Assembly (NCBI GenBank): GCA_963662715.1
Contig: OY759724.1
Location: 1,530,001 to 1,562,000, forward strand
Direction: 5' to 3'
Origin: Candidatus Omnitrophota bacterium
Lineage (GTDB): Bacteria; Omnitrophota; Gorgyraeia; Zapsychrales; JANLHA01
DNA: 32,000 nucleotides
A model generated the notes under the pieces. It saw only the letters and a list, made by a program, of their open reading frames with translations. It searched no databases and was not told where the DNA came from. Shown piece after piece: positions 7,815 through 31,488 of the stretch (the first letter of the stretch is position 1; every line of letters begins with the position of its first letter). A program made the position numbers and the translations under genes.

Positions 7815-9060
7815 ATCTTTACGTTTGCATATCGGCGTGTTCGGACGGACGAACGTGGGCAAGTCAAGTTTCCTGAACATGATTTCGGGCCAGGATGTTT
7901 CCATCACGAGCAGCCTCCCCGGCACAACAACAGATGTCGTGGAAAAGACCATGGAGCTCCTTCCTCTGGGGCCGGTGGTGTTCTTGGATACGGCCGGCAT
8001 TGACGACGTTTCCAGCCTGGCGGAAAAGAGAATAGAAAAGACCATGAAGATATTCCGCAGGGCGGATATCGTTTGCCTTATGGTTGAACCGGGGGTCTGG
8101 GGGAATTTTGAAGAAGATGTGCTGGTGAAAGCCGCCGGGGCGGGCATCCCTGTCCTCGGAATCGTCAATAAGATAGACTGCGCCCGTCCGGATAAGGATT
8201 TCACGGATAAAATCGCCGCCAAGACAAAAGGGTGCGTTTTGGTTTCAAGCGTGCCGGCGGACAAAAGGGAGAGGGAATCTTACATCAGTGCGCTGAAGAA
8301 GCATTTGATCCGTTTATGTCCTGATGATTTCTTGAATCCCCTTCCTTTGGTCGGGGATCTTATCCCTCCGGGTCAAGTGGCCGTGCTGATCGTTCCCATA
8401 GATCTTCAGGCCCCCAAAGGCAGGCTTATTCTGCCCCAGGTCCAGGCGATACGGGATGCCCTTGATGCGGACGCCATGATTCTTGTTGTCAAGGAGCGGG
8501 AATACAGCCATGCTCTTTCGATCCTGGAAGAACGGCCGGCCCTGGCCGTCTGTGATTCGCAGGTTGTGATGAAGATGGTGGCGGACACCCCTCCGGATAT
8601 GAAATGCACGACTTTTTCCATTCTCTTTTCCCGTTATAAAGGGGATCTTGTGGAATGCGTGAACGGCGTCTTCAGGATCGATGAACTCAAGCCGGGGGAC
8701 AGCGTCCTCATCGCGGAAAGCTGCAGCCATCATCCCATAGAAGACGATATCGGAAGGGTGAAAATTCCCCGATGGCTCAGGCAGTATCTTGGGCATGATG
8801 TGAACATCGACATATATTCGGGAAAGGATTTCCCGGACAACCTTTCCGAGTACAGCCTTATCATTCATTGCGGGGCATGTATGACAAACAGAAGAGAGAT
8901 GTTATTCAGGATTAATCTTGCAAAAGAACACGGTGTTCCGATAACCAATTACGGGATCTGCATATCTTTTTTGCAGGGAGTGTTAAAGAGGGTTCTCTCG
9001 CCGTTTCCTGCGGCATTGGATGTTTATGAGAGGAAAGTTTCTGGTAAAGGAGTGTTATGA
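7798..9060 (+). CDS. hydF: [FeFe]-hydrogenase maturation GTPase HydF
   Basis: P-loop GVFGRTNVGKSSFLN, DTAG, NKID. C-terminal cluster motif CSHH...HCGAC. Overlaps the upstream gene by 17 nt. Confidence 0.85.
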   Translation: MKKTPKSLRLHIGVFGRTNVGKSSFLNMISGQDVSITSSLPGTTTDVVEKTMELLPLGPVVFLDTAGIDDVSSLAEKRIEKTMKIFRRADIVCLMVEPGVWGNFEEDVLVKAAGAGIPVLGIVNKIDCARPDKDFTDKIAAKTKGCVLVSSVPADKRERESYISALKKHLIRLCPDDFLNPLPLVGDLIPPGQVAVLIVPIDLQAPKGRLILPQVQAIRDALDADAMILVVKEREYSHALSILEERPALAVCDSQVVMKMVADTPPDMKCTTFSILFSRYKGDLVECVNGVFRIDELKPGDSVLIAESCSHHPIEDDIGRVKIPRWLRQYLGHDVNIDIYSGKDFPDNLSEYSLIIHCGACMTNRREMLFRINLAKEHGVPITNYGICISFLQGVLKRVLSPFPAALDVYERKVSGKGVL

Positions 9061-10553
9061 GCGTTAAAAATACAGATATAAAGACTTGGTTGAAAGAACG
9101 TATCCGGCCGGAAGAGATAAAGAAATATATGCTTTCCGGTGAGGATTTTATTGATGATGCCTTTTTTCATCGTATCTTGGAAAAAAACCGGCATCCGCAT
9201 AAGCAGGAGATCCGGGATATCTTGGCAAAATCCCTGGCGATAGAGGCGCTCACTCTTGATGAAACGGCCGCTCTTTTGCATGTCACCGATCAAGACCTTC
9301 TTGAGGAGATGCGTGAAACAGCGCTTAAAGTCAAACTTAAGGTGTATGATAACCGCATCGTGACTTTTGCCCCGCTTTACATGGGAAATAAATGTGTCAA
9401 CAACTGTCTTTACTGCGGATTCCGAAGCGCCAATAGTTCAGCACAGCGGAGGGTCCTTTCAATGGATGAAATCCGTCAGGAAGCCGAGGTCCTGGCCGGA
9501 AAGATAGGGCATAAACGGCTTATTGTCGTGTACGGGGAGCATCCGGAAACAAACATTGATTATATGGTGGACTCTTTAAAAACGATTTATGGCGTTAAAG
9601 TTCAAACCCGAAAAGGTTTCGGCCAGATACGAAGAGTGAATGTCAATGCCGCGCCCATGCCGGTAGAAGAGCTCAGAAAGCTTCAGGAGGCAGGCATAGG
9701 AACATATCAGGTCTTTCAGGAGACCTATCATCATGAAACCTACAGGAACCTTCACCCGGAAAATACTGTGAAAGGGGATTATCCTTGGCGTTTATATGTC
9801 ATGCACCGCGCTTTTGAGGCAGGTATTGATGACGTGGGCATAGGGGCTTTGTTCGGGCTTTATGACTGGCGTTTTGAGGTTCTGGGGCTTGTGGCCCATT
9901 CCCGGGAGTTAGAGCAGAAATTCGGGATAGGACCGCATACGATTTCTTTTCCGAGGATTGAGCCTGCCGACGGGTCTCCCTGCCGGAGTAATTCCCCGTA
10001 TCTTGTAAATGATAATGATTTCAAACACCTCATAACGGTCATTCGTTTAAGCGTCCCGTATACCGGAATGATAATAACCGCCAGAGAAAGCGCTGAAATG
10101 CGCCGCAATGCTTTTCTTTACGGCTGTACCCAGACCGACGCGTCAACCTGTATCGGGATCGGGGGGTATAGAGAGGGGCTGTCATCGCAGGAAGGAGACC
10201 GGCAGCAGTTTATCTTGGGAGATATCCGGTCTCTTGATGAGGTCATCCGTGAATATGCTGACATGGGATATATTACTTCTTTTTGTACGGCAGGGTATCG
10301 TTGCGGGCGTACAGGAGAGTGCATCATGAATTTGCTTAAAACAGGACAAGAGGGAATGTTCTGTAAATTAAACGCGATATTAACTTTCAGGGAATGGCTT
10401 GATGATTTTGCCTCATCGGAGACGAAAAAGTCAGGAGAAGAGGTTATCATAAAGGAGCTGAATGAAGTCAGAGAGAAGTATCCGGACCTTTCTGCCGCAT
10501 TGGTAAAAAAATATGAGAGGATAAAACAGGGAGAAAGGGATTTATATTTTTAA
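9057..10553 (+). CDS. hydG: [FeFe]-hydrogenase maturase HydG (radical SAM, ThiH-like)
   Basis: Radical SAM CVNNCLYCGF. 498 aa with a Cys-containing C-terminal domain (SFCTAGYRCGRTGEC...FCKLNA). ATGA overlap with hydF. Confidence 0.8.
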   Translation: MSVKNTDIKTWLKERIRPEEIKKYMLSGEDFIDDAFFHRILEKNRHPHKQEIRDILAKSLAIEALTLDETAALLHVTDQDLLEEMRETALKVKLKVYDNRIVTFAPLYMGNKCVNNCLYCGFRSANSSAQRRVLSMDEIRQEAEVLAGKIGHKRLIVVYGEHPETNIDYMVDSLKTIYGVKVQTRKGFGQIRRVNVNAAPMPVEELRKLQEAGIGTYQVFQETYHHETYRNLHPENTVKGDYPWRLYVMHRAFEAGIDDVGIGALFGLYDWRFEVLGLVAHSRELEQKFGIGPHTISFPRIEPADGSPCRSNSPYLVNDNDFKHLITVIRLSVPYTGMIITARESAEMRRNAFLYGCTQTDASTCIGIGGYREGLSSQEGDRQQFILGDIRSLDEVIREYADMGYITSFCTAGYRCGRTGECIMNLLKTGQEGMFCKLNAILTFREWLDDFASSETKKSGEEVIIKELNEVREKYPDLSAALVKKYERIKQGERDLYF

Positions 10554-10833: not shown

Positions 10834-11490
10834 ATGAGCTTTGTTGAAGATAAATATCCTTTAAGAGAGAAAAAACACGCAAAGACAAAACTTGCTCTTA
10901 CGGAAGCATTTATAAAACGTTTAGAGCAGGAGGATTATGATACCATATCCATCAAAGACATTTGCCAGCAGGTTGAGGTTTCCGAAGCGACTTTTTTCAA
11001 CTATTTTCCCCGGAAGATCGATGTTATTATTTACTTCCATAATTTGTTTTTCCTTAAAATCTATTGGCGCTTGAAACATGAAAGCCAGACCGACGCTCCG
11101 ATTCAGCTTGTTATGGATTTGCTGGATTATTTGGCAGAAGAATTGCCGGAACCGAATGTTTTCTTTAGATTTATCGGCGTCTTTGTCAAGGACCGTCAAA
11201 GCAGGGATGAGATGCCGCATATTTCAGAGGCGGAAAAATATTACGCTTATCCAGACTTGCCGCAAATAGAGGAGATTCAATCGGTCAACATGGATTTGTA
11301 TTTACAGGATTTGATTGACCAGGCCGTGGCTCAAAACGTTGTTAAAGAAGGTATCAGCGCAAAAGATGTGTGGGTGGCCGTGAACACGATATTGATCGGA
11401 ACACCCATGTCGCTAGAGGAAAATTTCGCTGACTTGAAAGAATATTACCGCAAACAGCTTGCCTGGCTGCAGCAGTCTTTGACGCCATAG
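10834..11490 (+). CDS. TetR/AcrR-family transcriptional regulator
   Basis: N-terminal HTH ISIKDICQQVEVSEATFFNYFPRK. Size and position are typical, directly upstream of the efflux genes. Confidence 0.8.
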   Translation: MSFVEDKYPLREKKHAKTKLALTEAFIKRLEQEDYDTISIKDICQQVEVSEATFFNYFPRKIDVIIYFHNLFFLKIYWRLKHESQTDAPIQLVMDLLDYLAEELPEPNVFFRFIGVFVKDRQSRDEMPHISEAEKYYAYPDLPQIEEIQSVNMDLYLQDLIDQAVAQNVVKEGISAKDVWVAVNTILIGTPMSLEENFADLKEYYRKQLAWLQQSLTP

Positions 11491-11497
11491 GGGGGAT

Positions 11498-12808
11498 ATG
11501 AAGATGAAGAGTTTTGGATGGATAATATTTTTTATTTGCGGTTCGCTTTTGTTGTCCCCTTGCCCGGTCCGTTCCTCTGAACCGCTGAAGCTGACGATAC
11601 AGACGGCCATTGACATGGCTTTTGAGGCCAGTGAAGACCTTAAGATAAGCGAGAACAATATTCTCAAGAAACAGTCTGAGCGAAAAGAAGAACAGTCTTA
11701 TGCTTTGCCGCATATCATGGGCGAGGCAGGATGGTCGAATAATTTTGAATACCCTGACTTCCCGCAGACCTCATATACAGAAGAATATCATGTGAATACA
11801 GGCGTGACCGTCTCCCAGACTTTGTTTACTTTCGGCCGCATTTCCGCTGCGATCCAGGCGGCCAATAAAGCTATTGAGGTCAGCCGTTTTGACAGGGAGA
11901 GCACCCGGCAGGAAATTATTTATAACACGAAACTCGCTTACTACAATGCCTATGTTGCCAAAAGGATTTTTGAGATTGCCGAGGAATCTTATGAAAACGC
12001 CAGTCAGAATAAACGTATCCTGGAAGAGCGGAGCGAACAGGGCCGGGTCTCGAAATACAATAATATAAAAATATCATCCGACCTGGCTTCCCGTATGCCT
12101 GCGGTCAACAATGCCCGGGCGGATTTTCTTTCGGCCATGGAGACTTTAAAGGTCATGGTCGGGACAGAGGAGCCCGTTGAGCTTTTCGAAGGGTTCCGGC
12201 AGGACTGTCCTGATTTCGACAGACAGGAACTGGCCCTGGCCTTGTATCATAATCAGCCGGCCATTAAGGCTCTGGCGGCTAGCATAGAAGAAAAAGAAGC
12301 GCTTATCCGCTCCAAGACAGCGACGATTCTCCCGGAAATTTCCGCTTTTGCCAGCTGGAATCATAAGGGGGACGGCGATGAGTACTATGTGGGCCGTGAC
12401 AATATGGACGGTTACGGAGTGGCCGGCATCGAAGTCAGCATCCCTGTCTGGCTGGGAGGTATCAGCCGGGCCAAGCTGCATCAGGCTAAGCTCGACAAAA
12501 GAGATGCCGAACTGCAGTATCAGAAAGGCCGGGAAGATTATCTGCTGTTTCTGGATAAAGCGCTTAATAAATATAATGAATATAAAAAGACGTTGGAAGC
12601 GAATGAAGAAGCTTTGCGCTGGGCCGAAGAATCTTTTAAATACAGCCAGGAGCTTTTCGCCTCCGGCCAGGTCTCGGTGACGGATTTGAACGATGCGGAA
12701 CTGCAGCTTACGAACGCGAAAATGAATAAGGAATCCACCTTGTTTAATTTGAATATCATACTGGCCCAGATTGAGCGGCTGACTTTGATAGGAAACGCAT
12801 ATGAATAA
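11498..12808 (+). CDS. TolC-like outer membrane efflux protein
   Basis: Signal peptide followed by two internally repeated coiled-coil/beta halves typical of the OEP family. First gene of the efflux operon. Confidence 0.8.
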   Translation: MKMKSFGWIIFFICGSLLLSPCPVRSSEPLKLTIQTAIDMAFEASEDLKISENNILKKQSERKEEQSYALPHIMGEAGWSNNFEYPDFPQTSYTEEYHVNTGVTVSQTLFTFGRISAAIQAANKAIEVSRFDRESTRQEIIYNTKLAYYNAYVAKRIFEIAEESYENASQNKRILEERSEQGRVSKYNNIKISSDLASRMPAVNNARADFLSAMETLKVMVGTEEPVELFEGFRQDCPDFDRQELALALYHNQPAIKALAASIEEKEALIRSKTATILPEISAFASWNHKGDGDEYYVGRDNMDGYGVAGIEVSIPVWLGGISRAKLHQAKLDKRDAELQYQKGREDYLLFLDKALNKYNEYKKTLEANEEALRWAEESFKYSQELFASGQVSVTDLNDAELQLTNAKMNKESTLFNLNIILAQIERLTLIGNAYE

Positions 12809-13487
12809 GAAAAGAAATTGGGTTTATCTTTTTTGTCTTATCGGAACCGTGTTTCTTGTTGTCTGGAAACAACAGGTCATAAAGGAAGAAAGACAGAAAG
12901 CCATTATCAGCACTTTCTCGGAATGGGAGACGAAAGGGAAGCCCGTGGTTGTCTCCCGGGTCTCCCGGAGAGACGTGCCTTTTTATACAAAGGTTACGTC
13001 CTGGCAGGTCAGCGAGCACGTGTTTGAAGGTCATGTCTCCAGAGAGACAAGGGAGAAGATTCATGTGGGGCAGGACATGCTTTTTTATGTGGACGGGGGG
13101 GAAGTCCCGGGGTCAATTTCGAGTATCGCCGACGAAATTTCCCTGGAGACCGGGATGTACCGGGTTCAGGTTTATGTTGAGCGCCTGTTCGATTTAAAGG
13201 ACTGGGTGGTCGCCTACGCGCATACGGACACCCTCCGGGACGTGATATGTTTTCCCAACGAAATCATTAACAGTAAAGACGGAAAGCTGTTTGTCTGGAA
13301 ATCCGTGAATTCCAGAGCCGTCAGACAACCTATTGCCATAGGGCAGCGCGACGGTTACGGGGCGGTTGTGACGGAGGGATTGCAGGAGGGCGACACGGTT
13401 ATCGTCCAGGGGTTTACCATCCTTTCCGAAGGGGACAAGGTTCATGTCTTAAAGGACATCACGGACGAGGAGAGCGATCATGATTGA
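12801..13487 (+). CDS. RND periplasmic adaptor (membrane fusion protein), unusually short
   Basis: N-terminal TM anchor. Barrel-like C-terminus (VRQPIAIGQRDGYGAVVTEGLQEGDTVIVQG). 8-nt overlaps with both neighbours. Only 228 aa. Confidence 0.65.
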   Translation: MNKKRNWVYLFCLIGTVFLVVWKQQVIKEERQKAIISTFSEWETKGKPVVVSRVSRRDVPFYTKVTSWQVSEHVFEGHVSRETREKIHVGQDMLFYVDGGEVPGSISSIADEISLETGMYRVQVYVERLFDLKDWVVAYAHTDTLRDVICFPNEIINSKDGKLFVWKSVNSRAVRQPIAIGQRDGYGAVVTEGLQEGDTVIVQGFTILSEGDKVHVLKDITDEESDHD

Positions 13488-16400
13488 GTTCTTTGTTAAA
13501 AGACCGGTTACGACCATTATGTTCGTCGCGGTTTTCGTTATTTTGGGTATTGTCTCGATCTTTAACCTGCGGGTTGAAAAAGAGCCGCAGATTGATTTTC
13601 CTATCGTGACAGTGACCGTCACCTATCCCGGAGCAACGCCGCTGGAGGTGGAAACCCTGGTGATCAACAAGGTGGAGGATGCGGTCGCTGAACTGTCTGA
13701 GATCAAGAAGATGAACAGCTATTCTTACGAGAATTTCGGATATGTCTCCATAGAATTTCTGATGTCTTCCGACGTGAATATTAAACTGATCGAAGTCAAA
13801 GACAAAGTCGAAGCTATTTTAAACGACCTCCCGGAAAGCATCGAGAAGCCGGTCATCGAAAAGTTCGACCCGCTCATGGAGCCGGTCATGGACCTGGTGC
13901 TTTCAAGCGAAAGCATCGACGGACGGGATTTGTATGAGTTCGCCGACAAGAAACTCAAAGACCGGTTCTCTTCCATTGAAGGGGTGGCCAACGTTGATCT
14001 CTACGGAGGGAAAGAACGGCAGATCAACGTGACCGCGGATCCGATGCTGATGAAACAGCGGTATGTGGTGATTACGGATATTATCAACAGCATCAGGGCC
14101 AAGAACCGCAACATCCCGGGGGGACTGCTTGAGAAGGACAAGTCCTCGTTAAGCCTGCGTTTCCTGGGAGAGTTTGAAAGCCCTGAGGAAATCGCCAACA
14201 TGCTCATCGTCTCCAGAGACGGCAGCCGTTTTCCGCTTAAGGAGATCGCCCGGGTGGAGGACAGCTTTAAAGAGGTGGAAACCATAGCGCGGTATAACGG
14301 CAAAGATGTGGTCGGCATGTCCCTGAATAAAGTGTCCGACGGAAATGCCGTGAATATATCACGCGAGGTCCGCAAGCGGCTTCCGGCCTTGCGCGAGATG
14401 TTGCCGGAAGGGGTGTCTCTTGAAATCGCCACCGACACGACGGTTTTTATCATCAACGAAACCAATCAGACCTACATTAATATTATTATCGGGATTTTCC
14501 TGACCGTCCTTGTCCTGTATTTTTTTACCGGGGAGCTCAGTCTCACGTTTATCGCTTCGATCGCCATCCCGACGTCTATCGTGTCGGCCCTGTTTCTCGT
14601 GGACGCTTCCGGCTTTACCGTTAATATGATGACCCTTTTAGCCATGGCCACCGCGCTCGGAACTCTGATCGCCAACGCGATCATTATTGTGGAAAACGTG
14701 CTGGTGCATCTGAGCCGGGGGGATGACCCCCAGGCGGCCGCGATCAGCGGCACAAAAGAAGTGGCCTCGGCTGTCCTGGCATCCACGGGCACCAACCTGG
14801 TTGTGTTCACGCCCATTTCCTCTATGGGGGGGATCATCGGCCAGTTTATGCAGTCTTTCGGTTTAACGGTTATTTACGCGACGCTGTTTTCCCTGCTGGC
14901 CTCGTTCAGCCTGACGCCTATGCTGTGCGCGCTGCTTCTTAAAAAGCCGAAAAAAGACGCCGAAGGAACGAAGGCCCGTTTGTTTAATCCTTTTTCCTGG
15001 CTTGTTGTCCTGACCGACAAACTGATGCAGGGACTGAAACGCGAGTACCAGAGGATCTTTAATCTCATCTTCAGGTTCCACTGGGTCACCGTCCTGTTTG
15101 TCCTGCTGTGCTTTTATTCTTTGAAATTCATCATGCCTTATGTGGGGAACGAATTTTATCCGGCTTCCGATGAGGATATGATCACGGCCAAAGTGGAAAT
15201 GCCGCAAGGGTCCACGATCGAGAAGACCCTGGAGACCGTTCAGATTATTGAGACGCGCCTGCAGAAGATCCCCGAACTCGATTCGCTGCTGACGTCGATC
15301 GGCGAAGACGGGGTCGAAAACGCGGCCGTTGTCATGAACCTGGTTCCGCTGGCAGAGCGCCAGCGGGGCGACGTGGATATTATTTATGAACTTATCCCGT
15401 TTATGGCCCAGATTCCGGATGCGGAGATTAATATAGAACGCGGCGAAGCCCGGGGCGGCATCGAGGGGGATGTTACGATTAATCTTTACGGCCGCGACTA
15501 TGATCGGATGATCGATATCTCCAAAGCGATGAAAAAGAAGATGGAGGAAAGCGGCTATTTCCGCTCGGTGAAATCATCGTATAAGGTCCCGAAAAAAGAA
15601 ATCCGTTTTATCCCTGGCCAGGAGAAACTCGTGGAGGCCGGGTTGACAGATGCGGAGGTGGGGGGCATTGTGCGGGCGTCTGTCTACGGGGATGATTCCA
15701 ACATTTATAAAGAGGCCGGCGAGGAATATGATATTAACGTGGAGCTGGATGAGAAATACACCGAAGACTTCGATGATCTGAAACAAATAAACGTTATTTC
15801 CAAAAAAGGCCTGATCCCTGTAAGCGAGCTCGGCCGGATTGAGGAAGACAAAGCCTATCCGACGATCCGTCACCGGGATAAAGAACGGATCATCACCCTG
15901 GACGGTTATTTGTCCAAGTCCAATGCCGGGTATGTCCGGCGCATTCTGGATGAGTCTTTTAAGGATATTGCTTTTGAAGACGGCTACGGGTATGTTTACG
16001 CGGGGAGCGCTGAATATCAGGAGGAATCCGCGCAGGAAACCGGCAAGGCGTTCCTGCTTGCGGTCGTCTTGACCTTTATGCTTCTCTGCGCCCTTATGAA
16101 TTCGTTCCTTTATCCCATCCCGATCCTGTTGGCCGTGGCCACGTCTTTTATCGGGGTCTTTTACGCGTTTTTCTTCCTGGAGCAATCCATCAATATCGCC
16201 TCCATGCTCGGTATGATCATGCTTGTCGGACTTGTGGTGAACAATTCCATTTTGCTTTTGGACTACACTTTGCTGAAAATGAATGAAGGGGTTCCGGTTG
16301 TGGAGGCGCTGTGGCTGGGCGCGTCAGAGAAATTCCGGGCGATTATCATGACGTCTCTGGCGATCGTTCTGGGTGTTCTCCCGCAGCTCTGGTCGGTGGT

Positions 16401-16539
16401 GCCGCTGAAATCCGCCATGGGAACGGTTATGCTCGGCGGCATGCTGGCGTCGATATTTTTCACGTTCATCTTTACACCGATAGCGTTCTGGTATGTTGTC
16501 AGCATCAGACGGTTTTTTTCATCCCGAAAAACCGGATAA
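13480..16539 (+). CDS. RND (AcrB/HAE family) inner-membrane efflux transporter
   Basis: 1019 aa with two large periplasmic loops and 12 hydrophobic segments. N-terminus MIEFFVKRPVTTIMF is typical of AcrB-like pumps. Confidence 0.9.
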   Translation: MIEFFVKRPVTTIMFVAVFVILGIVSIFNLRVEKEPQIDFPIVTVTVTYPGATPLEVETLVINKVEDAVAELSEIKKMNSYSYENFGYVSIEFLMSSDVNIKLIEVKDKVEAILNDLPESIEKPVIEKFDPLMEPVMDLVLSSESIDGRDLYEFADKKLKDRFSSIEGVANVDLYGGKERQINVTADPMLMKQRYVVITDIINSIRAKNRNIPGGLLEKDKSSLSLRFLGEFESPEEIANMLIVSRDGSRFPLKEIARVEDSFKEVETIARYNGKDVVGMSLNKVSDGNAVNISREVRKRLPALREMLPEGVSLEIATDTTVFIINETNQTYINIIIGIFLTVLVLYFFTGELSLTFIASIAIPTSIVSALFLVDASGFTVNMMTLLAMATALGTLIANAIIIVENVLVHLSRGDDPQAAAISGTKEVASAVLASTGTNLVVFTPISSMGGIIGQFMQSFGLTVIYATLFSLLASFSLTPMLCALLLKKPKKDAEGTKARLFNPFSWLVVLTDKLMQGLKREYQRIFNLIFRFHWVTVLFVLLCFYSLKFIMPYVGNEFYPASDEDMITAKVEMPQGSTIEKTLETVQIIETRLQKIPELDSLLTSIGEDGVENAAVVMNLVPLAERQRGDVDIIYELIPFMAQIPDAEINIERGEARGGIEGDVTINLYGRDYDRMIDISKAMKKKMEESGYFRSVKSSYKVPKKEIRFIPGQEKLVEAGLTDAEVGGIVRASVYGDDSNIYKEAGEEYDINVELDEKYTEDFDDLKQINVISKKGLIPVSELGRIEEDKAYPTIRHRDKERIITLDGYLSKSNAGYVRRILDESFKDIAFEDGYGYVYAGSAEYQEESAQETGKAFLLAVVLTFMLLCALMNSFLYPIPILLAVATSFIGVFYAFFFLEQSINIASMLGMIMLVGLVVNNSILLLDYTLLKMNEGVPVVEALWLGASEKFRAIIMTSLAIVLGVLPQLWSVVPLKSAMGTVMLGGMLASIFFTFIFTPIAFWYVVSIRRFFSSRKTG

Positions 16540-16597
16540 AAAAACAGGCTTTCATCTTTAAAGGAAAACGGAGGATCTCTGTGCGCAGGAAATTGAT

Positions 16598-16994
16598 CAT
16601 GACGTCTCTTCTGGACATGATAAAAAAACATCAGGATAAAGAGATTGAATATATTGACGACACTATTATTTCAGACAATTATCTCCTTATCCGTTTAAAA
16701 GGCCCGATTGACGCGCAGACCCTTCCGCTGATCGAGAGAAAATCCATGGATGAAGACGCCTTTGAAAACAAACATATTCTTTTGAACTTTGAAAAAGTGA
16801 ACCATGTGGACACCGCCACACTGGCGACCCTTGTGAAGGTTTTTCATGACCTTAAAAAGAATGACAAGGAACTCGGCGTCATTCATGCCAGCGCGACTTT
16901 AAAGAAGTATATTGAAATTCTGAAACTAGGTTCTGTGGTGAAAACTTTTAGCGATGAAGCAGCAGCCTTAAAAGCCTTTCATCTTCAAAACTAG
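16598..16994 (+). CDS. STAS-domain protein (anti-sigma-factor antagonist-like)
   Basis: LLIRLKGPIDAQT...FEKVNHVDTATLATLVKVFHDLKKNDKELGVIHASATLKKYIEILKL. The upstream part of track ORF 16311 overlaps the RND gene and was trimmed. An in-frame GTG at 16580 is an alternative start. Confidence 0.7.
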
Positions 16995-17033: not shown

Positions 17034-18335
17034 TTATGCCGAGAGCAGGGTGTCCAAAGGGCTCTGCGCGCAAGAATCCAGCCCTTTGATGACATGGGTA
17101 TATATCATCGTCGTCTCAACGTGCTTGTGCCCCAGCAGTTCCTGTACTTCCCGGATATTCACTCCGTTCAACAGCAGATGCGTGGCGAAACTGTGCCGCA
17201 GCGTGTGCAGGGAAACATGTTTAACAATCCCCGCCTTTTTTACCGCCGCTCTCATGCCCTTCTGCAGAGGCCGCATGCTCATGTGAAACCTCCGTATTTT
17301 GCCTGTCGTTGATTCAACCGATAATTTGGACGAGGGGAACACGTACTGCCAGGCCCAGTCCTTGCCTGCCTTGGGGTATTTACGGCTTAAAGCATAGGGT
17401 AGAGACACTTCCCCATAGCCGTTTTTCATATCCTGTTCATGCAGGCGTTTGACCTTTTCAAGCTGTTGTTGCAGCGGGACTTTTAACTGCTGCGGAAAAA
17501 GAGTGGAACGGTCTTTGTCTCCTTTGCTTGACCGGACGAAAATAAGGTTGCCTTCAAAATCAAGGTCCTTGACTCTTAACTTTACAAGTTCGGAAACCCT
17601 TAACCCTGATCCGTAGAGCAGCTGATGGACCATCAGGTTCTTTCCGCTTGAGTGCTGAAAGAGGGCGCGCACCTCCTCAACAGAAAGCACGACCGGAAGT
17701 TTCGGGCCCCGTTTGGCCCTTACCGTGCCCTGCAGGTTTTCCAGATCGCGGTGTAAAATGTCGCGGAATAAAAATAGTAATGAATTGAACGCCTGATTCT
17801 GTGTCGAGGCGGATACCCGGCGCCTTAACGCCAAATAGGTGAGGAAATCCTGGACATCTGTTGCGCTCCATTTATCTATCTCTTTTCCCATGGGATCGAT
17901 TTCCATGAGGTATTGCTGGAATTTATATATCCAGTGGGTGTAGGTTTTTTCCGTGCTCACGGAGTAATGCTTGATACGGATAACCTGGCGGACTTTCTGA
18001 ATGAGTTCTTCAAAGGTTTTGCATGAGGACGCAGGGAGGATGATCCACGGCGGGGATTCCTGGGCCGGTCTTTGTTTAAGGTATTTGTAGAAATAGAGTT
18101 TGACGGCTGAATAAGCCTGCCGGACCTGCCATTCTTCCCTTGTTCCGGAGTCTCTTAAGAAATCCATGAACTGGTGAATGCGGATATCCAGTTCGATCTG
18201 CTGTTCAGCGCTTTTGTTGGCGAATTTGAGAAACTGGGCGGCCCAGGAAGCATAGAACGGGATGCATTTCTCCTCGGTCAGCTTGCGGGAAGATAAGTAT
18301 TTCTGGAATTCAGGAAGTACGAGTGTTGTTTTCAT
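17034..18335 (-). CDS. intI: integron integrase (tyrosine recombinase, IntI type) with extra N-terminal domain
   Basis: Colinear with IntI1 from LIQKVRQVIRIKHYSVSTEKTYTHWIYKF to the C-terminus. IntI-specific insert ALSRKYPKAGKDWAWQYVFPSSKLSVESTTGKIRRFHM. Catalytic HTLRHSFATHLL...LLGHKHVETTMIYTHV. Divergent from a downstream attC array. Confidence 0.85.
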   Translation of the reverse strand: MKTTLVLPEFQKYLSSRKLTEEKCIPFYASWAAQFLKFANKSAEQQIELDIRIHQFMDFLRDSGTREEWQVRQAYSAVKLYFYKYLKQRPAQESPPWIILPASSCKTFEELIQKVRQVIRIKHYSVSTEKTYTHWIYKFQQYLMEIDPMGKEIDKWSATDVQDFLTYLALRRRVSASTQNQAFNSLLFLFRDILHRDLENLQGTVRAKRGPKLPVVLSVEEVRALFQHSSGKNLMVHQLLYGSGLRVSELVKLRVKDLDFEGNLIFVRSSKGDKDRSTLFPQQLKVPLQQQLEKVKRLHEQDMKNGYGEVSLPYALSRKYPKAGKDWAWQYVFPSSKLSVESTTGKIRRFHMSMRPLQKGMRAAVKKAGIVKHVSLHTLRHSFATHLLLNGVNIREVQELLGHKHVETTMIYTHVIKGLDSCAQSPLDTLLSA

Positions 18336-19089: not shown

Positions 19090-19420
19090 ATGATGATAAA
19101 GCCGGGCATTGAATTCATTGCTCCTTTCAGAATATACCTTCCAGAAGAATTCTATGAGATAGCATTGGAAGGCAAAATGCATCTCGTCAAACCCGTAGCG
19201 TTGCCTCCTGTAAAAATAGATGAAGGAACACAAGTACACGGGAAGAATATTGAAATATCCCACGATATCTTTGGTTATGCAGGAAGAACGAAATTTTCAG
19301 TAATTATAGATGAAGATGTCGATATTAAATCAGGAAGTTGGAAACAGGATTTTTGTGATAATGAATCCTCATTTATAGATGCAGCAATTTTCGCTGTAAA
19401 TAGAATGCTCGATGTGTATA
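19090..19420 (+). pseudogene. hypothetical protein gene interrupted by the IS3-family insertion
   Basis: AAGGAG RBS. The ORF runs into the IS left inverted repeat at 19421, so the last 14 residues of track ORF 19090..19464 are IS-encoded. A short 3' remnant follows the IS, ending by about 20693 in any frame. Confidence 0.5.
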
Positions 19421-19485
19421 TGACCCACCCCCCAAAAGTTGAGCCACTTTTTGTGATAGAATAATGATAACAGAAAGGGGCAAAA

Positions 19486-19761
19486 ATGGGTAAAAGATTC
19501 AAATCAGAAGAAATAATTACGAAATTACGAGAAGTTGAAATACACCTTGGTAAAGGGCTGGACACCGGAGATGCCTGCCGACAAGCGGGCATATCGGAAC
19601 AGACCTATTACCGTTGGCGCAAGGCATACGGCGGGATGAAAATAGATCAAGCCAAGAAGTATAAAGAGCTAGAACGGGAGAATACCCGATTAAAGAAACT
19701 GGTGGCTGACTTATCATTAGATAACGCTATTTTGAAGGAAGTCAATGAGGGAAACTTCTAA
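19486..19761 (+). CDS. IS3-family transposase OrfA (HTH)
   Basis: [18 protein letters not shown]...[18 protein letters not shown]...[21 protein letters not shown] is the classic IS3 OrfA HTH plus leucine zipper. Confidence 0.85.
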
Positions 19762-19787
19762 GCCCGGCCAAGAAACGCCGGGCGATT

Positions 19788-20639
19788 ATGTGGGCGAAGG
19801 AGAAATTCCCCAAAGTATCAGAAAGGCGGTTGTGTAAAATTCTTAGCCAAGCAAGATCAACACAGCAATATAGATGTTCAGGCCGATATGATGAAGGAGC
19901 ATTAGTTGAGGCTATGATCAATATGGTCAAGCAATATGGACGGTATGGATACCGAAAAGTTGCTGAATTGTTACGCGAATCGGGCTGGATGCCATTAAAT
20001 GATAAACGAGTCGAACGTTTATGGAGACGGGAAGGTCTTAAAGTTCCGATGAAACAACCTAAACGAAGGAGGTTATGGCTGAATGACGGTTCCTGCATCC
20101 GATTACGGCCAGAACATCACAACCACGTCTGGAGTTATGATTTTGTTCATGACCGGACATCAAATGGCCGACCAATAAAGATGTTAACGATCATTGATGA
20201 GTATAGCCGGGAATGCCTGGCCATAGAAGTTGGGCGCAAACTCAATTCCAGGAATGTGATTGATGTTTTATCTCGATTGTTTATTGAAAAAGGAGTGCCG
20301 TTATATATTCGTTCGGATAATGGGCCGGAATTTATCGCTGAACGCGTCCGTTGGTGGTTGAGAAGGATCGGAGTGGAAACGTTGTATATTGAACCGGGAA
20401 GCCCTTGGGAAAATGGATATATTGAATCCTTTAACGGGCGACTACGGGATGAGTTGTTAAATCTGGAAATTTTTGATACATTGTATGAAGCTCAGGTGTT
20501 GGTGGAACGCTGGCGGTGGGAATATAATACGATCCGTCCGCATGGATCATTGGGTTATAAGCCTCCGGCACCGGAAGCTATTCAACCAAGATGGCTTCAG
20601 CCATCTCCGTTAAACTCTCACAACTTTTGGCACAACTAA
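19788..20639 (+). CDS. IS3-family transposase OrfB (DDE/rve domain), made as an OrfAB fusion by -1 frameshift
   Basis: rve-type core ([48 protein letters not shown]). The OrfB frame is open from 19749. Slippery heptamer G_GGA_AAC at 19749-19755 lies in the orfA/orfB overlap. Confidence 0.85.
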
Positions 20640-21404: not shown

Positions 21405-21563
21405 ATGAAAAAACAAGGCAAACCGTTCAAGCATAGAATCAAAGGCAGTTATAAGTGCGCTCATTGCGGAGCTGAAATTGATTGGAATGAGCCGCATTTG
21501 GTCTGCAAGAAATGTGATTACTGGATATGTTATATGAACTGTAAACCATGTCCCCCAAAATAA
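21405..21563 (+). CDS. small zinc-ribbon protein (52 aa)
   Basis: MKKQGKPFKHRIKGSYKCAHCGAEIDWNEPHLVCKKCDYWICYMNCKPCPPK has two CxxC pairs. GGAGAAGG RBS. Confidence 0.4.
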   Translation: MKKQGKPFKHRIKGSYKCAHCGAEIDWNEPHLVCKKCDYWICYMNCKPCPPK

Positions 21564-22254: not shown

Positions 22255-22737
22255 ATGAAAGATCCGATGATGACTACGACTATCAGACAAATTTCGGAAA
22301 AAGAAATCCCGGTGAGTATATTGCTACAAGCCGACCCATCAGAAAAATGTGTCGATAAATATCTTCCAAACTCTAAATGCTTTGGTGCATTTGTTGAAAA
22401 TGTTTTGGTCGGTGTATGTGTAACAAATTTAAATGAAACAGGTGTCTGGGAAATATTCAATATCGTGGTGATTCCAGAAAAGCAGAAACAAGGTATTGGA
22501 ACAAAACTACTGAAATTTGTTATCAGACATTTTGAAAATATTGGTGAAAAGAATCTTGAATTAGGTACCGGCACATTTGGTTATCAATTGTTGTTTTATC
22601 AACGATTGGGATTCAGAGTTGAAGGTGTTTGGAAAAACTTTTTTGTCGATAACTATTCTGATTCCATTTATGAACAAGGCGTACAGCTCCAAGATATGCT
22701 TAGATTAAGCCTAAAATTGAATCAGACATGCACATAA
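22255..22737 (+). CDS. GNAT-family N-acetyltransferase
   Basis: Acetyl-CoA motif VVIPEKQKQGIGTKLLKFV and FYQRLGFR. Start moved to ATG 22255 because the track start 22222 lies inside the attC. Confidence 0.8.
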   Translation: MKDPMMTTTIRQISEKEIPVSILLQADPSEKCVDKYLPNSKCFGAFVENVLVGVCVTNLNETGVWEIFNIVVIPEKQKQGIGTKLLKFVIRHFENIGEKNLELGTGTFGYQLLFYQRLGFRVEGVWKNFFVDNYSDSIYEQGVQLQDMLRLSLKLNQTCT

Positions 22738-22806
22738 CAACTGCTTCAGCGGGACACCAACCCACGCATCCGCGCGGTCAGGCGCCCGTTAAGTAGAGCG
22801 TTATGC
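22732..22806 (+). repeat. attC recombination site
   Basis: ACATAAC overlaps the TAA stop of the GNAT gene ... cttcagcgggacacc ... gcGTTATGC. Confidence 0.7.
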
Positions 22807-22885
22807 AAAAGTGTAAATATGAAATATGAAGATACGCCTATCCATTCTGTCTGGATTTGAGTCATGTTAATCTGGAGGACAAATA

Positions 22886-23587
22886 ATGCCGAGAAACGTA
22901 ACGAAAACCTACAGCCAAGAGGTGTCTGTAGGCCGGACCTGCTCAGAATGCGCACATAATTGGGTGTATTCAGAAACTCTGAAAGTGAGCGAAACAAAGG
23001 CAGGGGATTTTTGGGAACCCTCATTTGACGAGGAAGGGATGAAAGAAAAACTCAATAAAAGTATAGAGGCTTTTAAAAAGAATTGTTCGTCCCGCTGTTA
23101 TTGCCCTAAATGCAAGGCTCTCGCCGTGCAGACTATGAACAAATATCTGCCCAGCGGGTTTCTTGCCGCTTTCAAACAGGGCTATGTCCTTTCGAAAAAA
23201 GAAACCAAAAATGTGTTTATCTGGGGCACTATCATAATATTGGCTATTGTTTTAGCGTTTGCTTCAGGCCTGGATTTAAGCGGTGTCATTGATTCTTTGG
23301 ATATTGACGGCGATTCTTTTCCTGCGGTTGTAGGTATTATTATAGCCACTCTGGTTTTTGGGCTATTTATTATTTGGATTTTGGTGGTTTATGTTCAAAA
23401 CACCATTGATTTTTTCAAATTGAACTCGGTCAGAGAGTCCGATTTGGAAATTTTTGATGAAAAAGAAGCAAAACAATTTTTCCGGGATTGCCGTTGCGAG
23501 CCCTTTGATCTTGGTGCTGTCGGGACAATGATCCCCGGATATCTTGATAAGCATAAAATGAAACACGCCGGAGCGGAGGCGTCTTAA
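22886..23587 (+). CDS. hypothetical membrane protein with split zinc-ribbon N-terminal domain
   Basis: CSEC ... CPKC pairs in the first ~90 aa. Two long hydrophobic helices (IWGTIIILAIVLAFASGL, VVGIIIATLVFGLFIIWILVVYV). First gene of a two-gene cassette. Confidence 0.55.
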   Translation: MPRNVTKTYSQEVSVGRTCSECAHNWVYSETLKVSETKAGDFWEPSFDEEGMKEKLNKSIEAFKKNCSSRCYCPKCKALAVQTMNKYLPSGFLAAFKQGYVLSKKETKNVFIWGTIIILAIVLAFASGLDLSGVIDSLDIDGDSFPAVVGIIIATLVFGLFIIWILVVYVQNTIDFFKLNSVRESDLEIFDEKEAKQFFRDCRCEPFDLGAVGTMIPGYLDKHKMKHAGAEAS

Positions 23588-23590
23588 ATT

Positions 23591-23971
23591 ATGTTTTATG
23601 TTGATTTTAACAAGGCAGAGAAATTGTTGAAAATAAAGTTAACACATATTTTCGATGAGAAGGACGCTGAGCAATGGCTGGCACAGATCAAAGTTTGTTT
23701 AAAGAATGTGCAGCCAGGTTTTAAAATCCTTACTGATTTAACAAGCGTGGAAAGGGTGGATGCGGCAACAATTCAATATATCGAACAAGCTATGGATTTT
23801 TGCAATCAAAAAGGGGTATCTAAAATTGTAAGAATAATTCCAGACTCTGCCAAAGATGTCGGATTTAATATAATGTCTATTTTTCATTACGATAATAATA
23901 TAGATATAATTACTGTTTCCAACATGGATGAGGCTATAAATAGATTATTTTTTAAACACAAATCATTTTAA
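23591..23971 (+). CDS. SpoIIAA/STAS-like fold protein (tentative)
   Basis: 126 aa. The pattern FKILTDLTSVERVDAATIQYIEQAMDFCNQKGVSKIVRII resembles STAS/SpoIIAA-like modules. Starts 3 nt after the upstream stop. Confidence 0.45.
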   Translation: MFYVDFNKAEKLLKIKLTHIFDEKDAEQWLAQIKVCLKNVQPGFKILTDLTSVERVDAATIQYIEQAMDFCNQKGVSKIVRIIPDSAKDVGFNIMSIFHYDNNIDIITVSNMDEAINRLFFKHKSF

Positions 23972-23995
23972 GCTTTGTCGATAGCATCAGGAAAC

Positions 23996-24076
23996 ATTTA
24001 ACAAGCCACTTCGTCGTCCCCGCCTTGCCGCGGCGGGGACAGCTTTGCGGCCCCCGCCGCGTTCGTTGCGTTATGT
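23996..24076 (+). repeat. attC recombination site
   Basis: ATTTAAC ... tcgtcgtccccgccttgccgcggcggggac ... gttcgttgcGTTATGT. Confidence 0.75.
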
Positions 24077-24089
24077 TAAGGATAAATAA

Positions 24090-24527
24090 ATGAGATTATG
24101 GTCCCTTCATCCCAGATACTTAGATCAGAAAGGATTGGTTGCTCTTTGGCGGGAAGGCTTATTGGCACAAAAAGTTCTTATGGGAGAAACAAAGGGCTAT
24201 AAAAACCATCCTCAATTACTGAGGTTTAAAAACACAATAAATCCTGTGGGAGCTATTGCTTCATATTTAGACGCAATATATAAGGAATCTTTGGATAGAG
24301 ATTTCAATTTTAATGAGGAGAAGATACATAAAAAAAGAACAAAGAAGAAAATTGGCGTAACAAAGGGGCAGCTGGAATATGAGCTGGAACATTTGAAAAG
24401 AAAATTAAAAAATCGGGACAAGAAAAAATACCATGAAATTATGAGGGTGAAAAAGCCTGAAGCTAATGCAGTGTTCCGGGTGTCTGCGGGTGATGTGGAA
24501 GAATGGGAAAGAAGAAATAAAACATAA
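24090..24527 (+). CDS. pyrimidine-dimer DNA glycosylase (T4 endonuclease V-like) family protein
   Basis: The N-terminus MRLWSLHPRYLDQKGLVALWREGLLAQKVLMGETKGYKNHPQLLRF matches my recollection of the conserved start of this family. Confidence 0.7.
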   Translation: MRLWSLHPRYLDQKGLVALWREGLLAQKVLMGETKGYKNHPQLLRFKNTINPVGAIASYLDAIYKESLDRDFNFNEEKIHKKRTKKKIGVTKGQLEYELEHLKRKLKNRDKKKYHEIMRVKKPEANAVFRVSAGDVEEWERRNKT

Positions 24528-24608
24528 CAGGTCATTCCGTCGTCCCCGCCTTGCCGCGATGCGGCTGCGTCAGGCCCCGCAGCCCCGCTTGAGTTCCTTG
24601 CGTTAGAC
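24522..24608 (+). repeat. attC recombination site
   Basis: ACATAAC overlaps the TAA stop ... ccgtcgtccccgccttgccgcgatgcggctgcg/cgcagccccgc palindrome ... gagttccttgcGTTAGAC. Confidence 0.75.
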
Positions 24609-27186: not shown

Positions 27187-27260
27187 CTATAACAAGTCCA
27201 GCGTCCCCGACTTGCCACGATGCGGCTCCGGCAGGGGCCGCTGAGTTCATTGCGTTATAT
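27187..27260 (+). repeat. attC recombination site
   Basis: CTATAAC ... cagcgtccccgacttgccacgatgcggctccggcaggggccgc ... gagttcattgcGTTATAT. Confidence 0.75.
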
Positions 27261-29981: not shown

Positions 29982-30069
29982 TCAAAACAATTAAAAAGAC
30001 AGCCGACAATCCGTTTTGCGGAGTCCTGCGGCAGGCTTTGCTCCGCGATGAATTCGCGTTGCGTTGGCT
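29982..30069 (+). repeat. attC-like site
   Basis: TCAAAAC ... gcggagtcctgcggcaggctttgctccgc (palindrome) ... gaattcgcgttgcGTTGGCT. Confidence 0.5.
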
Positions 30070-30087
30070 GATAGGTTGGAAAGAGAT

Positions 30088-30426
30088 ATGCAGGAAATAA
30101 CTTGGAATGATTTTTCAAAAATCGAATTAAGGGTCGGCAGGATTATCCGTGCAGAGGCTTTCCCCGAAGCACATAAGCCTGCGTATAAACTTGCGGTCGA
30201 TTTCGGTCATGAAATAGGCGTGAAAAGATCAAGTGCTCAAATTACTGATTTTTATCCGGCAAATGAACTTCTGGGGAAATTGATAGTAGCGGTTGTTAAT
30301 TTCCCTCCGAAGCAAATCGGGCCTATGATGTCAGAGTGCCTGGTGACAGGATTTCATGATAATGAGGGGCATGTGGTTTTATGCGTTCCGGAGAAAGACG
30401 TGCCGCTTGGAACCAAATTATTATAA
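30088..30426 (+). CDS. csaA: CsaA-like tRNA-binding (EMAP/OB-fold) domain protein
   Basis: FSKIELRVGRIIRAEAFPEAHKPAYKLAVDFG...VVNFPPKQIGPMMSE is the characteristic CsaA/YgjH pattern. Start moved out of the attC to ATG 30088. Confidence 0.75.
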   Translation: MQEITWNDFSKIELRVGRIIRAEAFPEAHKPAYKLAVDFGHEIGVKRSSAQITDFYPANELLGKLIVAVVNFPPKQIGPMMSECLVTGFHDNEGHVVLCVPEKDVPLGTKLL

Positions 30427-30433
30427 TGTTCAT

Positions 30434-30515
30434 CATTTGACAAGGCGTTTTCAAACTGGCGCACAAAGGGCCGCGTGTCTGCCCCGGCAGCCGTCCGTGA
30501 AACATAGCGTTATAA
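30434..30515 (+). repeat. attC-like site
   Basis: CATTTGAC (variant 5' core) ... ggccgcgtgtctgccccggcagccg ... catagcGTTATAA. Confidence 0.5.
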
Positions 30516-30532
30516 CGGAGAAGGAGGAGAAT

Positions 30533-30793
30533 GTGATTTGTCCTCATTGTCATAGAAAGGTCAAAATAAATTCCAAAGCCAGGAACGGTGTCGGAAGAGT
30601 GCGGGTTTGTGACTATTGCGGAGGAAAATTCAGACTCAAATATAATTATGCGAAATTATTCGGTGCTATCTTGTTGGGGATCCTTTTGTGCGGGGGCTTA
30701 GCCAATGTCATGAACGAAAAAGCCCTGGTTATTATCTTCATGCTTTCAATGCTTGTGGGGGTTATCATATCTTCTAAAACGGTGAAAGCATAA
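30533..30793 (+). CDS. zinc-ribbon protein with two C-terminal TM helices (GTG start)
   Basis: AAGGAGGAG RBS 5 nt before the GTG. VICPHCHRK...VCDYCGG, then FGAILLGILLCGGLA and LVIIFMLSMLVGVII. Confidence 0.5.
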   Translation: MICPHCHRKVKINSKARNGVGRVRVCDYCGGKFRLKYNYAKLFGAILLGILLCGGLANVMNEKALVIIFMLSMLVGVIISSKTVKA

Positions 30794-30794
30794 A

Positions 30795-30865
30795 CGATAA
30801 CAAGTCATTGCAAGGGGACTGCCAGCGTCGGAGGCTTCGCAACACCGCCGTATGTCCCGTTAGGA
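30795..30865 (+). repeat. attC recombination site
   Basis: CGATAAC ... aagtcattgcaaggggactgccagcgtcggaggcttcgcaac ... gtcccGTTAGGA. Confidence 0.6.
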
Positions 30866-30879
30866 TAGAGGAGAAGACG

Positions 30880-31488
30880 ATGAAAGAAAAACCCACGGTC
30901 ATTTGCTTTATCGATGACGATCCCGTTGAAGTCCAGGCCTTCAAAGACGTTTTTGGCGAAGACTTCACGGTTATCGCTGACTCTACTCCAGACCCCGTGC
31001 TCGCGGAACTGAAAAGACGAAAGCTGCGGGCCAACCTTTTTGTCCTGGATTTATATTTTGCGGAAGGGAGGGCGAGTTCAGATAAGGAGCGTGACAGGAT
31101 GATCGCCCTCAAGGCCGAGGTGGACCGCAGCCAGAAGGCGCTCAGCGATTATCTCAATGCCATCGGCCAGAGCCGTGACGGCGGCCTGAGGATCCTGCGG
31201 CATATCCGGGAGAACTATCCGATGACCCCCGTTGTCTTTTACACGCGCAAGGGGACTCTCGCGGATGCCGTCGCCTGCGGGGATGCCGGGGCCGATGGTG
31301 TCCTGCCAAAGGCAATGCCGATGGAGTTTGATTCACACGGTAATCGGCTTGAACAGATCAGGCAGGCGGCGCGGGATCATCATGATGCTTTGGCCACACA
31401 TTTTTTCTGCAAGGCATCGACATCCAATATTTTTAAAAAACTGCTCCGGATAGCCAAGTTCATATGGCGCAACTGGTCAAAACTGTGA
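30880..31488 (+). CDS. receiver (REC)-like domain protein with internal insertion, no output domain
   Basis: VICFIDDDPVE (acidic pair), LFVLDLYF (acceptor Asp), VVFYTRKG (Thr), GVLPK (Lys). About 45 aa are inserted after the acceptor strand. GAGGAG RBS. Confidence 0.55.
   Translation: MKEKPTVICFIDDDPVEVQAFKDVFGEDFTVIADSTPDPVLAELKRRKLRANLFVLDLYFAEGRASSDKERDRMIALKAEVDRSQKALSDYLNAIGQSRDGGLRILRHIRENYPMTPVVFYTRKGTLADAVACGDAGADGVLPKAMPMEFDSHGNRLEQIRQAARDHHDALATHFFCKASTSNIFKKLLRIAKFIWRNWSKL

Follow-up and report, generated by a model that had tools for sequence, protein, structure and literature searches.

A two-gene integron cassette of an Omnitrophota bacterium places a rare zinc-ribbon membrane protein next to a divergent STAS-fold protein

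The stretch of 32,000 nucleotides (nt) analyzed here, referred to as the window, belongs to Candidatus Omnitrophota bacterium (assembly GCA_963662715.1, contig OY759724.1, positions 1,530,001 to 1,562,000). It carries a chromosomal integron, in whose cassette array two closely spaced genes, here designated A and B, share one cassette. The following features define the locus:

17034–18335, minus strand: integron integrase gene intI (TIGR02249; Phage_integrase and SAM_4 domains)
22732–22806, plus strand: left attC site, part of the preceding GNAT cassette (R'' ACATAAC, R' GTTATGC; hairpin fold)
22800–22806, plus strand: R' core GTTATGC of the left attC, start of the A–B cassette
22807–22885, plus strand: cassette leader, which holds the ribosome-binding site of A
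22874–22878, plus strand: GGAGG ribosome-binding site of A, read from the sequence
22886–23587, plus strand: gene A, open reading frame (ORF) of 233 amino acids
23575–23579, plus strand: GGAGG ribosome-binding site of B, within the final codons of A; the ATG of B follows 11 nt later
23591–23971, plus strand: gene B, ORF of 126 amino acids
23995–24076, plus strand: right attC site of the A–B cassette, a GC-rich imperfect palindrome (R'' ATTTAAC; R' GTTATGT at 24070–24076)

The intI product scored 396 bits against the integron integrase model TIGR02249 (cut-off, 265 bits) and is the recombinase that would mobilize the cassette. Downstream of intI, the array runs on the plus strand as co-oriented ORFs separated by GC-rich imperfect palindromes, which start with ..TAAC and end with GTTR.. 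The bottom strand of the left attC folded into a single end-to-end hairpin (−16.5 kcal/mol, z −2.45), and the site could be aligned with the remaining attCs of the window and with those of a second array (locus L011, described below). The right attC (−21.0 kcal/mol, z −2.21) is related in sequence to the attCs at 24536–24580 and 27197–27241. In an 80-nt sliding fold over positions 22600–24270, the two deepest minima coincided with these two attC sites, the right one being the strongest, and no attC-like minimum appeared at the A/B junction, where the values reached just −6 to −8 kcal/mol. The attC calls are based on the folds of the individual sites, the inverted R''/R' cores, and the alignment with other attCs. 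RNAalifold yielded no consensus structure for a MAFFT alignment of 11 attCs, an alignment that is not structure-aware, and an Rfam search of the window gave no match. A further fold minimum inside A (23080–23170) was discarded as an attC candidate, as it lacks attC cores and corresponds to the conserved coding region of a zinc knuckle. With attC sites on both sides and no attC minimum at the junction, the two genes form one cassette and not two. We conclude that the A–B unit is a genuine two-gene cassette of approximately 1.27 kb in a chromosomal integron. An earlier reading made from the sequence only (hereafter, the sequence-only reading) had described an attC-bounded unit of two genes with a 3-nt spacer, and this description was borne out.

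Genes A and B share strand and reading frame, and just the stop codon TAA and the spacer ATT lie between them. The ribosome-binding site of B is located inside A, which implies co-transcription of the two genes and makes translational coupling possible. A promoter scan of the leader (22807–22885) revealed no sigma-70-like promoter, and the cassette is probably promoterless. As a separate observation, read-through of the single stop codon at the A/B boundary would give a fusion protein with transmembrane helices followed by a STAS domain, because both genes share a frame and are separated by TAA-ATT only.

Relatives of A proved to be scarce. A word-indexed homologue search returned A alone, and at least three proteins were obtained when this search was repeated with the family profile. 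An exhaustive phmmer search of 1.84 billion representatives identified 15 distant relatives (E 7e-13 to 3e-4) with 25–34% identity over the matched stretches. These proteins share the architecture of A, which comprises a four-cysteine split zinc ribbon (C19/C22 and C73/C76), an FPxGF motif, a pair of hydrophobic helices, and an acidic helix at the C-terminus with the family motif E-E-D-A-K-x-F-F, present as EKEAKQFF in A. In the family alignment, C73 and C76 are invariant, and M1, R17, C19, C22, W26, and G91 are conserved to at least 90%. Kyte–Doolittle windows placed the transmembrane segments of A at approximately 110–130 and 145–171. Basic residues precede the first segment and the loop between both segments is acidic, so that both termini should be cytoplasmic. 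From this residue pattern, we infer that the zinc ribbon and the helical C-terminal domain face the cytoplasm and are joined by a two-helix membrane hairpin. The sequence-only reading had assigned to A a cytoplasmic split CxxC...CxxC domain, two transmembrane helices, and a charged C-terminal tail. The four cysteines and the two hydrophobic helices are indeed features of the whole family, and the predicted topology agrees with the proposed one; the tail is charged as proposed, though predicted to be helical and not disordered.

The AlphaFold2 model of A was unexpectedly confident for an alignment of 16 sequences, with a predicted local distance difference test score (pLDDT) of 91.4 and a predicted template modeling score (pTM) of 0.75. 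It consists of a long β-hairpin (residues 3–19 and 25–40) with the first CxxC at the turn, a helix (49–65), the second knuckle, a helical hairpin (92–126 and 142–181), and the C-terminal helices. No structural relative of this model was detected in the PDB (best E 1.2) or in BFVD (best E 0.03), and the A-family profile retrieved only transmembrane noise from the PDB sequences. Likewise, no family in Pfam, NCBIfam, PADLOC, or PHROGs was matched consistently by A or its relatives. A gave a match of below-cut-off quality to DUF7544 over the transmembrane region (E 2.7e-4), and single relatives gave chance-level matches to several zinc-ribbon models; no family found a match in two or more of the 16 members. 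A weak match of one relative to PADLOC PDC-M01B was rejected, as it is not common to the family. Pattern scans of Joint Genome Institute (JGI) metagenomes and of viral contigs uncovered no A relative. Thus, A is a real gene; the inner-membrane protein that it encodes represents a very rare and hitherto undescribed family.

For B, a homologue search retrieved 14 relatives with 32–61% identity. B itself matched the Pfam STAS model (PF01740) with an E-value of 2.9e-4 and 21.0 bits, short of the gathering threshold of 22.6 bits; 12 of the 15 family members matched STAS at E < 0.01, the best with an E-value of 9.4e-6. The best PDB sequence matches of the B-family profile were SpoIIAA proteins. The AlphaFold2 model of B, which was built on the family alignment, reached a pLDDT of 88.8 and a pTM of 0.83 and shows β-strands at residues 2–7, 12–21, 45–56, 78–82, and 105–109 with interleaved helices. 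All 28 Foldseek matches of this model at E ≤ 0.001 were STAS proteins, headed by SpoIIAA (1thn_B, E 4.6e-6, template modeling scores (TM-scores) of 0.67/0.72) and including RsbV, RsbS, DUF3478, SLC26 STAS domains, and SiaC. The SpoIIAA/STAS-type fold that had been suspected for the second gene is thereby confirmed by both the model and the structural search. Two sequence motifs are conserved in the family, GFxILTDLSxLExMD and the strongly conserved C-terminal RIIPDxxKDIGFNIMSIFHY. In a survey of one genome per species of the Genome Taxonomy Database (GTDB), nearly all of the 37 B-family loci belonged to Omnitrophota, Verrucomicrobiota, or Planctomycetia, and a B-pattern scan of viral contigs revealed no relative. 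B is therefore a free-standing protein of the STAS/SpoIIAA fold and a member of a divergent family centered on the Planctomycetota–Verrucomicrobiota–Chlamydiota (PVC) group, mainly on Omnitrophota, Verrucomicrobiota, and Planctomycetota.

The fold of B brings to mind classical partner switching, with B in the role of the anti-sigma-factor antagonist and A acting as a membrane-anchored, zinc-binding anti-sigma factor or as its sensor. The best sequence and structure matches of B are indeed anti-sigma F antagonists with the SpoIIAA/RsbV fold, and A is a membrane protein with a predicted cytoplasmic zinc site. However, the phosphorylatable serine is not conserved. The column aligned to the SpoIIAA phospho-serine, immediately after the residues MD, is occupied by Ala58 in B and by Ser or Thr in just 16 of the 99 unique family members, which argues that B-family proteins are not classical partner-switching antagonists and largely refutes this explanation. 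Judged from this alignment, the B family does not appear to use the serine phosphorylation switch of SpoIIAA/RsbV. Moreover, genes for a HATPase_c kinase, a PP2C phosphatase, or a sigma factor are all missing from the cassette, and A itself is devoid of kinase and phosphatase domains. Its zinc site consists of a β-hairpin ribbon plus a second CxxC knuckle and is not a helical HxxxCxxC zinc-binding anti-sigma (ZAS) domain, and A did not match any anti-sigma family in Pfam or NCBIfam. We thus consider a partner-switching function of the cassette very improbable.

We then analyzed the occurrence of both families across genomes. B loci were gathered from protein look-ups, from the GTDB scan mentioned above (37 loci), and from JGI metagenomes (71 loci), and the A-family profile was searched against the six-frame ORFs of 129 loci at E ≤ 10. 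Of these, 122 carry a B-family gene and seven are loci of A relatives. The 122 B loci represent 98 distinct B genes, with at least 800 nt of sequence upstream in 78 cases and downstream in 75. For none of the 98 distinct B genes was an A-family ORF detected in the respective loci (122 in total); such ORFs were found only in the seven loci of A relatives. The neighbors of the B genes are heterogeneous and include an S58 peptidase, a cyclase/TPR protein, an RND (resistance–nodulation–division) pump with a P-II protein, ABC-F, DUF748, MFS, and DsrE proteins, an amino-acid kinase, a squalene-hopene cyclase, an ankyrin protein, and others. Only two adjacent proteins combine at least two CxxC motifs with a transmembrane segment, and both are unrelated to A. 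The large unannotated proteins upstream of the B relatives at loci L001 and L003 were considered as A-like candidates and rejected upon inspection and profile search.

The converse comparison gave the same picture. None of the four distinct A relatives with usable context (P0025, P0028, P0019, and P0018; seven loci) has a STAS neighbor; their genes are monocistronic or lie beside unrelated genes. This count excludes P0017, the closest relative of A, which is located on a contig of 1.9 kb. An apparent AAA ATPase near P0019 was dismissed as a defense gene, because it lies beside dnaN and is probably RecF. The P0028 gene resides on a segment of approximately 1 kb that is present in two TARA contigs (L017, 3988–5020, and L018, 1309–2340) with different upstream DNA; a type IIG restriction-modification enzyme is encoded upstream in one contig and a TIR/pentapeptide protein downstream in the other.

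The closest relative of B, P0003 (61% identity), is encoded in another integron array, which was seen in two metagenomes (L011 and L012). There it forms a single-gene cassette between attC sites, adjoined by unrelated small cassettes, and the DNA homology between the window and the P0003 locus extends from the base before the ATG to the stop codon. As an aside on this array, the attC upstream of the P0003 cassette (L011, 733–808) has the core motifs but only a weak fold (−5.8 kcal/mol, z −0.26), in contrast to the remaining three attCs on that contig, which fold well; the site at 733–808 may be decaying.

The sequence-only reading had viewed the cassette as a co-mobilized module of a membrane sensor or effector and a partner-switching-like protein, and a lack of co-occurrence of homologues across genomes had been named beforehand as the result that would speak against it. 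No homologues of the two genes occur together (0 of 98 B genes, 0 of 4 A relatives), and the closest B relative travels alone. Together with the missing phospho-serine and the missing kinase and phosphatase genes in the cassette, this leaves the proposed module unsupported.

The same counts bear on the possibility of a toxin–antitoxin-like addiction module that stabilizes the array, with A as the membrane toxin and B as the antidote. Two-gene cassettes in chromosomal integrons are often toxin–antitoxin systems, and A and B are small and tightly coupled. However, the A relatives stand alone in four genomes with no small partner adjacent on the same strand, which would be unexpected for a constitutive toxin, the B relatives stand alone approximately 98 times, and neither protein matches a known toxin–antitoxin or defense family. 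Such a role is therefore highly unlikely.

More weight can be given to a dedicated two-component membrane system, for example for anti-phage defense by abortive infection, in which A would serve as effector or sensor and B would gate it by direct binding. Tight coupling within a shared cassette is what such a system would look like, the A relative P0028 occurs in a variable region beside a type IIG restriction-modification enzyme or a TIR-domain protein, and the STAS-like protein SiaC activates the cyclase SiaD by direct binding (PMC8457831). As background only, integron cassettes of formerly unknown function include phage-resistance genes, about a third of which encode transmembrane helices and some of which occur as two-gene cassettes (bioRxiv 10.1101/2024.07.02.601719). 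The lack of co-occurrence among 98 B genes and four A relatives, however, argues against a dedicated system. In addition, neither A nor B matched PADLOC-DB 2.0 or PHROGs, the A relatives showed scattered single-member PADLOC matches at E > 9e-4, and no relatives were found in the viral contigs. The hint of a defense island comes from one protein, and the remaining A relatives are encoded in ordinary chromosomal contexts. We regard a dedicated system as unlikely, and a defense role for the cassette as possible but unsupported.

As members of either family are usually seen in the absence of the other family, and B-type genes also travel as a one-gene cassette, A–B is most likely a lineage-specific chimeric juxtaposition. 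The base composition of the genes differs by 11 points, with a GC content of 42.3% for A (43.6% at third codon positions, GC3) and 31.2% for B (GC3 30.7%). On balance, we favor the view that the cassette is a lineage-specific, probably chimeric, and presumably co-expressed juxtaposition of unknown function and not a conserved module. It may have originated by the joining of two independent genes or cassettes or by the capture of a local gene pair, and the 3' end of A would supply the signals for translation of B.

Several observations count against a chance juxtaposition. The 3-nt spacer, the ribosome-binding site of B within A, and the lack of an attC remnant give the unit the look of a selected operon, and a precise accidental fusion is unlikely a priori. 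Comparison with P0017 shows A to have a C-terminus of native length, which speaks against read-through across a decayed attC; taken together with the missing attC remnant, simple decay of an intervening attC is not evident. Selection for co-expression would account more readily for so exact a junction of 3 nt; this is the main argument for a functional link and the reason why the dedicated system keeps some credit. Furthermore, the genomic contexts of just four distinct A relatives with 20–34% identity were available, and A orthologues with B partners could be unsampled. Finally, part of the GC contrast may stem from the amino-acid composition, A being a membrane protein.

A lineage-specific interaction between A and B may exist. 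If the two proteins act together, B would most plausibly dock on the cytoplasmic face of A in a phosphorylation-independent manner, as a regulatory subunit of A and not as an anti-sigma antagonist. In its boldest form, this idea makes A and B a newly assembled, phosphorylation-independent membrane switch, in which B binds the zinc ribbon or the C-terminal domain of A and thereby gates a membrane activity, be it permeabilization of the abortive-infection type or signal relay. The integron would then have fused two independently mobile genes, one of them coding for a previously unseen fold, into a new two-component system. We consider this scenario quite improbable and retain the lineage-specific juxtaposition as our preferred interpretation.

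The only positive functional lead for B came from domain fusions. At six to seven loci of Omnitrophota, a B-type STAS forms the N-terminal domain of a protein of approximately 430 amino acids and is followed by about five transmembrane helices and a C-terminal GGDEF diguanylate cyclase domain (STAS-TM-GGDEF, with TM for transmembrane):

L028, 4306–5601: STAS-TM-GGDEF fusion
L036, 4989–6269: STAS-TM-GGDEF fusion
L039, 1292–2614: STAS-TM-GGDEF fusion (identical to L098)
L048, 5001–6296: STAS-TM-GGDEF fusion
L071, 1655–2947: STAS-TM-GGDEF fusion
L095, 359–1645: STAS-TM-GGDEF fusion
L041: STAS-TM-GGDEF fusion, truncated

The GGDEF domain of the L036 fusion was recognized with an E-value of 4e-38. 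At two further loci (L006 and L007), the gene for a large cyclase/TPR protein begins 5 nt after that of a free-standing B relative. Both arrangements suggest that B-type STAS domains probably regulate membrane-associated signaling proteins. Homology of A to the transmembrane module of the fusions was rejected (hhalign probability 0.4%); since the two are unrelated, the fusions provide no Rosetta-stone link between A and B.

The window contains a second STAS gene (16598–16994), which lies next to intI and encodes a canonical STAS protein (PF01740, E 1.2e-13). It closes an RND efflux operon at 10834–16994 that encodes TetR, OEP, an unannotated protein of 228 amino acids, and AcrB. The sequence-only reading had pointed to this gene as a chromosomal STAS neighbor of the integrase. 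Its identity as a STAS gene stood up, while its product resembles B in nothing beyond the fold: a paralogous relationship was rejected on the basis of a BLASTP E-value of 89. The gene thus gives no support for a link between integrons and STAS signaling. A B-type STAS gene also follows an OEP/MFP/AcrB operon and a P-II-like gene at locus L009 (1–5363), and small STAS proteins and RND pumps may possibly be linked recurrently.

Some further features of the window surround the array. An insertion sequence of the IS3 family, with an ORF at 19090–19464 upstream, lies between intI/attI and the first recognizable cassettes (19486–20639) and may uncouple the array from the cassette promoter of the integron:

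19486–19761: IS3 orfA (HTH_Tnp_1)
19788–20639: IS3 orfB (rve/rve_3)

A stretch of 486 nt between the called ORFs contains a cysteine-rich ORF of 52 amino acids (MKKQGKPFKHRIKGSYKCAHCGAEIDWNEPHLVCKKCDYWICYMNCKPCPPK, approximately 21405–21563) with its own GGAG upstream, which is possibly a cassette for a zinc-finger micro-protein. The cassette following A–B (24090–24527) encodes a pyrimidine-dimer DNA glycosylase of the T4 endonuclease V type (PF03013, E 3.4e-22), and the products of neighboring cassettes include a PNPOx-like protein, a GNAT acetyltransferase, and an aldo/keto reductase whose gene has a GC content of 58%. The last clear attC (29982–30063) is followed by overlapping or tightly spaced ORFs (30064–31488) for a tRNA_bind-domain protein, a weakly CpXC-like zinc protein, and a response-regulator receiver protein; the array may end here, or the region may constitute a further multi-gene unit. 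On the opposite side of the window, an [FeFe]-hydrogenase (4052–5995; Fe_hyd_lg_C, E 1.4e-89) and a radical-SAM/BATS protein of the HydG type (9057–10553) are encoded, which indicates an anaerobic host.

The novelty of the locus lies in two poorly known protein families and not in a new system; the cassette itself is best classed among the integron cassettes of unknown function, here one that encodes a STAS-fold protein. Both families and their conserved motifs are now defined. The locus illustrates that multi-gene cassettes can be one-off chimeras and that the sharing of one cassette by adjacent genes says little about whether they are functionally linked. If the pairing is functional, the integron would have built a new two-protein membrane system from independent parts, and the cassette would offer a first handle both on a zinc-ribbon family with two transmembrane helices and no structural relatives and on a PVC STAS subfamily lacking the phospho-switch. 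The STAS-TM-GGDEF fusions, in turn, direct attention to the regulation of membrane-bound cyclic di-GMP synthesis by B-type STAS domains.

Compared with known systems, A resembles generic zinc-ribbon membrane proteins (Zn_ribbon, DZR, DUF7544) in its pair of rubredoxin-type CxxC...CxxC knuckles followed by transmembrane helices. The arrangement of a β-hairpin of 17 plus 16 residues, a helix, the second knuckle, and FPxGF is, however, specific to the A family. As in multi-gene integron cassettes, such as toxin–antitoxin cassettes and the two-gene phage-resistance cassettes termed "BRiCs", two possibly co-expressed genes lie between consecutive attCs; A–B differs from these in that neither gene belongs to a known toxin–antitoxin or defense family and in that the pair does not recur.

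With SpoIIAA/RsbV (PF01740), B shares the fold (TM-scores of 0.65–0.74 to 1thn_B, 1h4z, and 4hyl), and its motif DLSxLxxMD aligns with DLxxLxFMDSSG of SpoIIAA. In contrast, the B family lacks the conserved phospho-serine at the N-terminus of helix 2 (DSSG motif) and has a C-terminal motif of its own, RIIPDxxKDIGFNIMSIFHY, and B scores below the Pfam gathering threshold with no kinase or phosphatase partner nearby. The SpoIIAA-like/DUF3478 proteins (PF11964; 2q3l, 2ook) resemble B in being small, free-standing STAS-fold proteins of unknown function without a phosphorylation motif. The TM-score to 2q3l is 0.70–0.73, and PF11964 was weakly matched by 4 of the 15 B relatives, whereas the sequence identity amounts to only 11–12% and B itself does not match PF11964.

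STAS domains dock on membrane machinery without phosphorylation in MlaB–MlaF and in the SLC26/SulP transporters with their C-terminal STAS domain, and the B-type domains of the STAS-TM-GGDEF fusions are so placed that they could do likewise. MlaB–MlaF, SLC26/SulP, and SiaC–SiaD are all represented among the structural matches of B (6zy2_B, 9ias_A, and 7e6g). B shows no sequence-level membership in these groups, and A is not an ABC ATPase, a transporter, or a cyclase. In all three systems, a STAS fold serves as regulatory subunit, either at the membrane or acting on a nucleotide cyclase. Going by the domain fusions, the B-type STAS domains are probably phosphorylation-independent regulatory modules on membrane-associated signaling proteins, comparable in principle to SiaC–SiaD or MlaB–MlaF.

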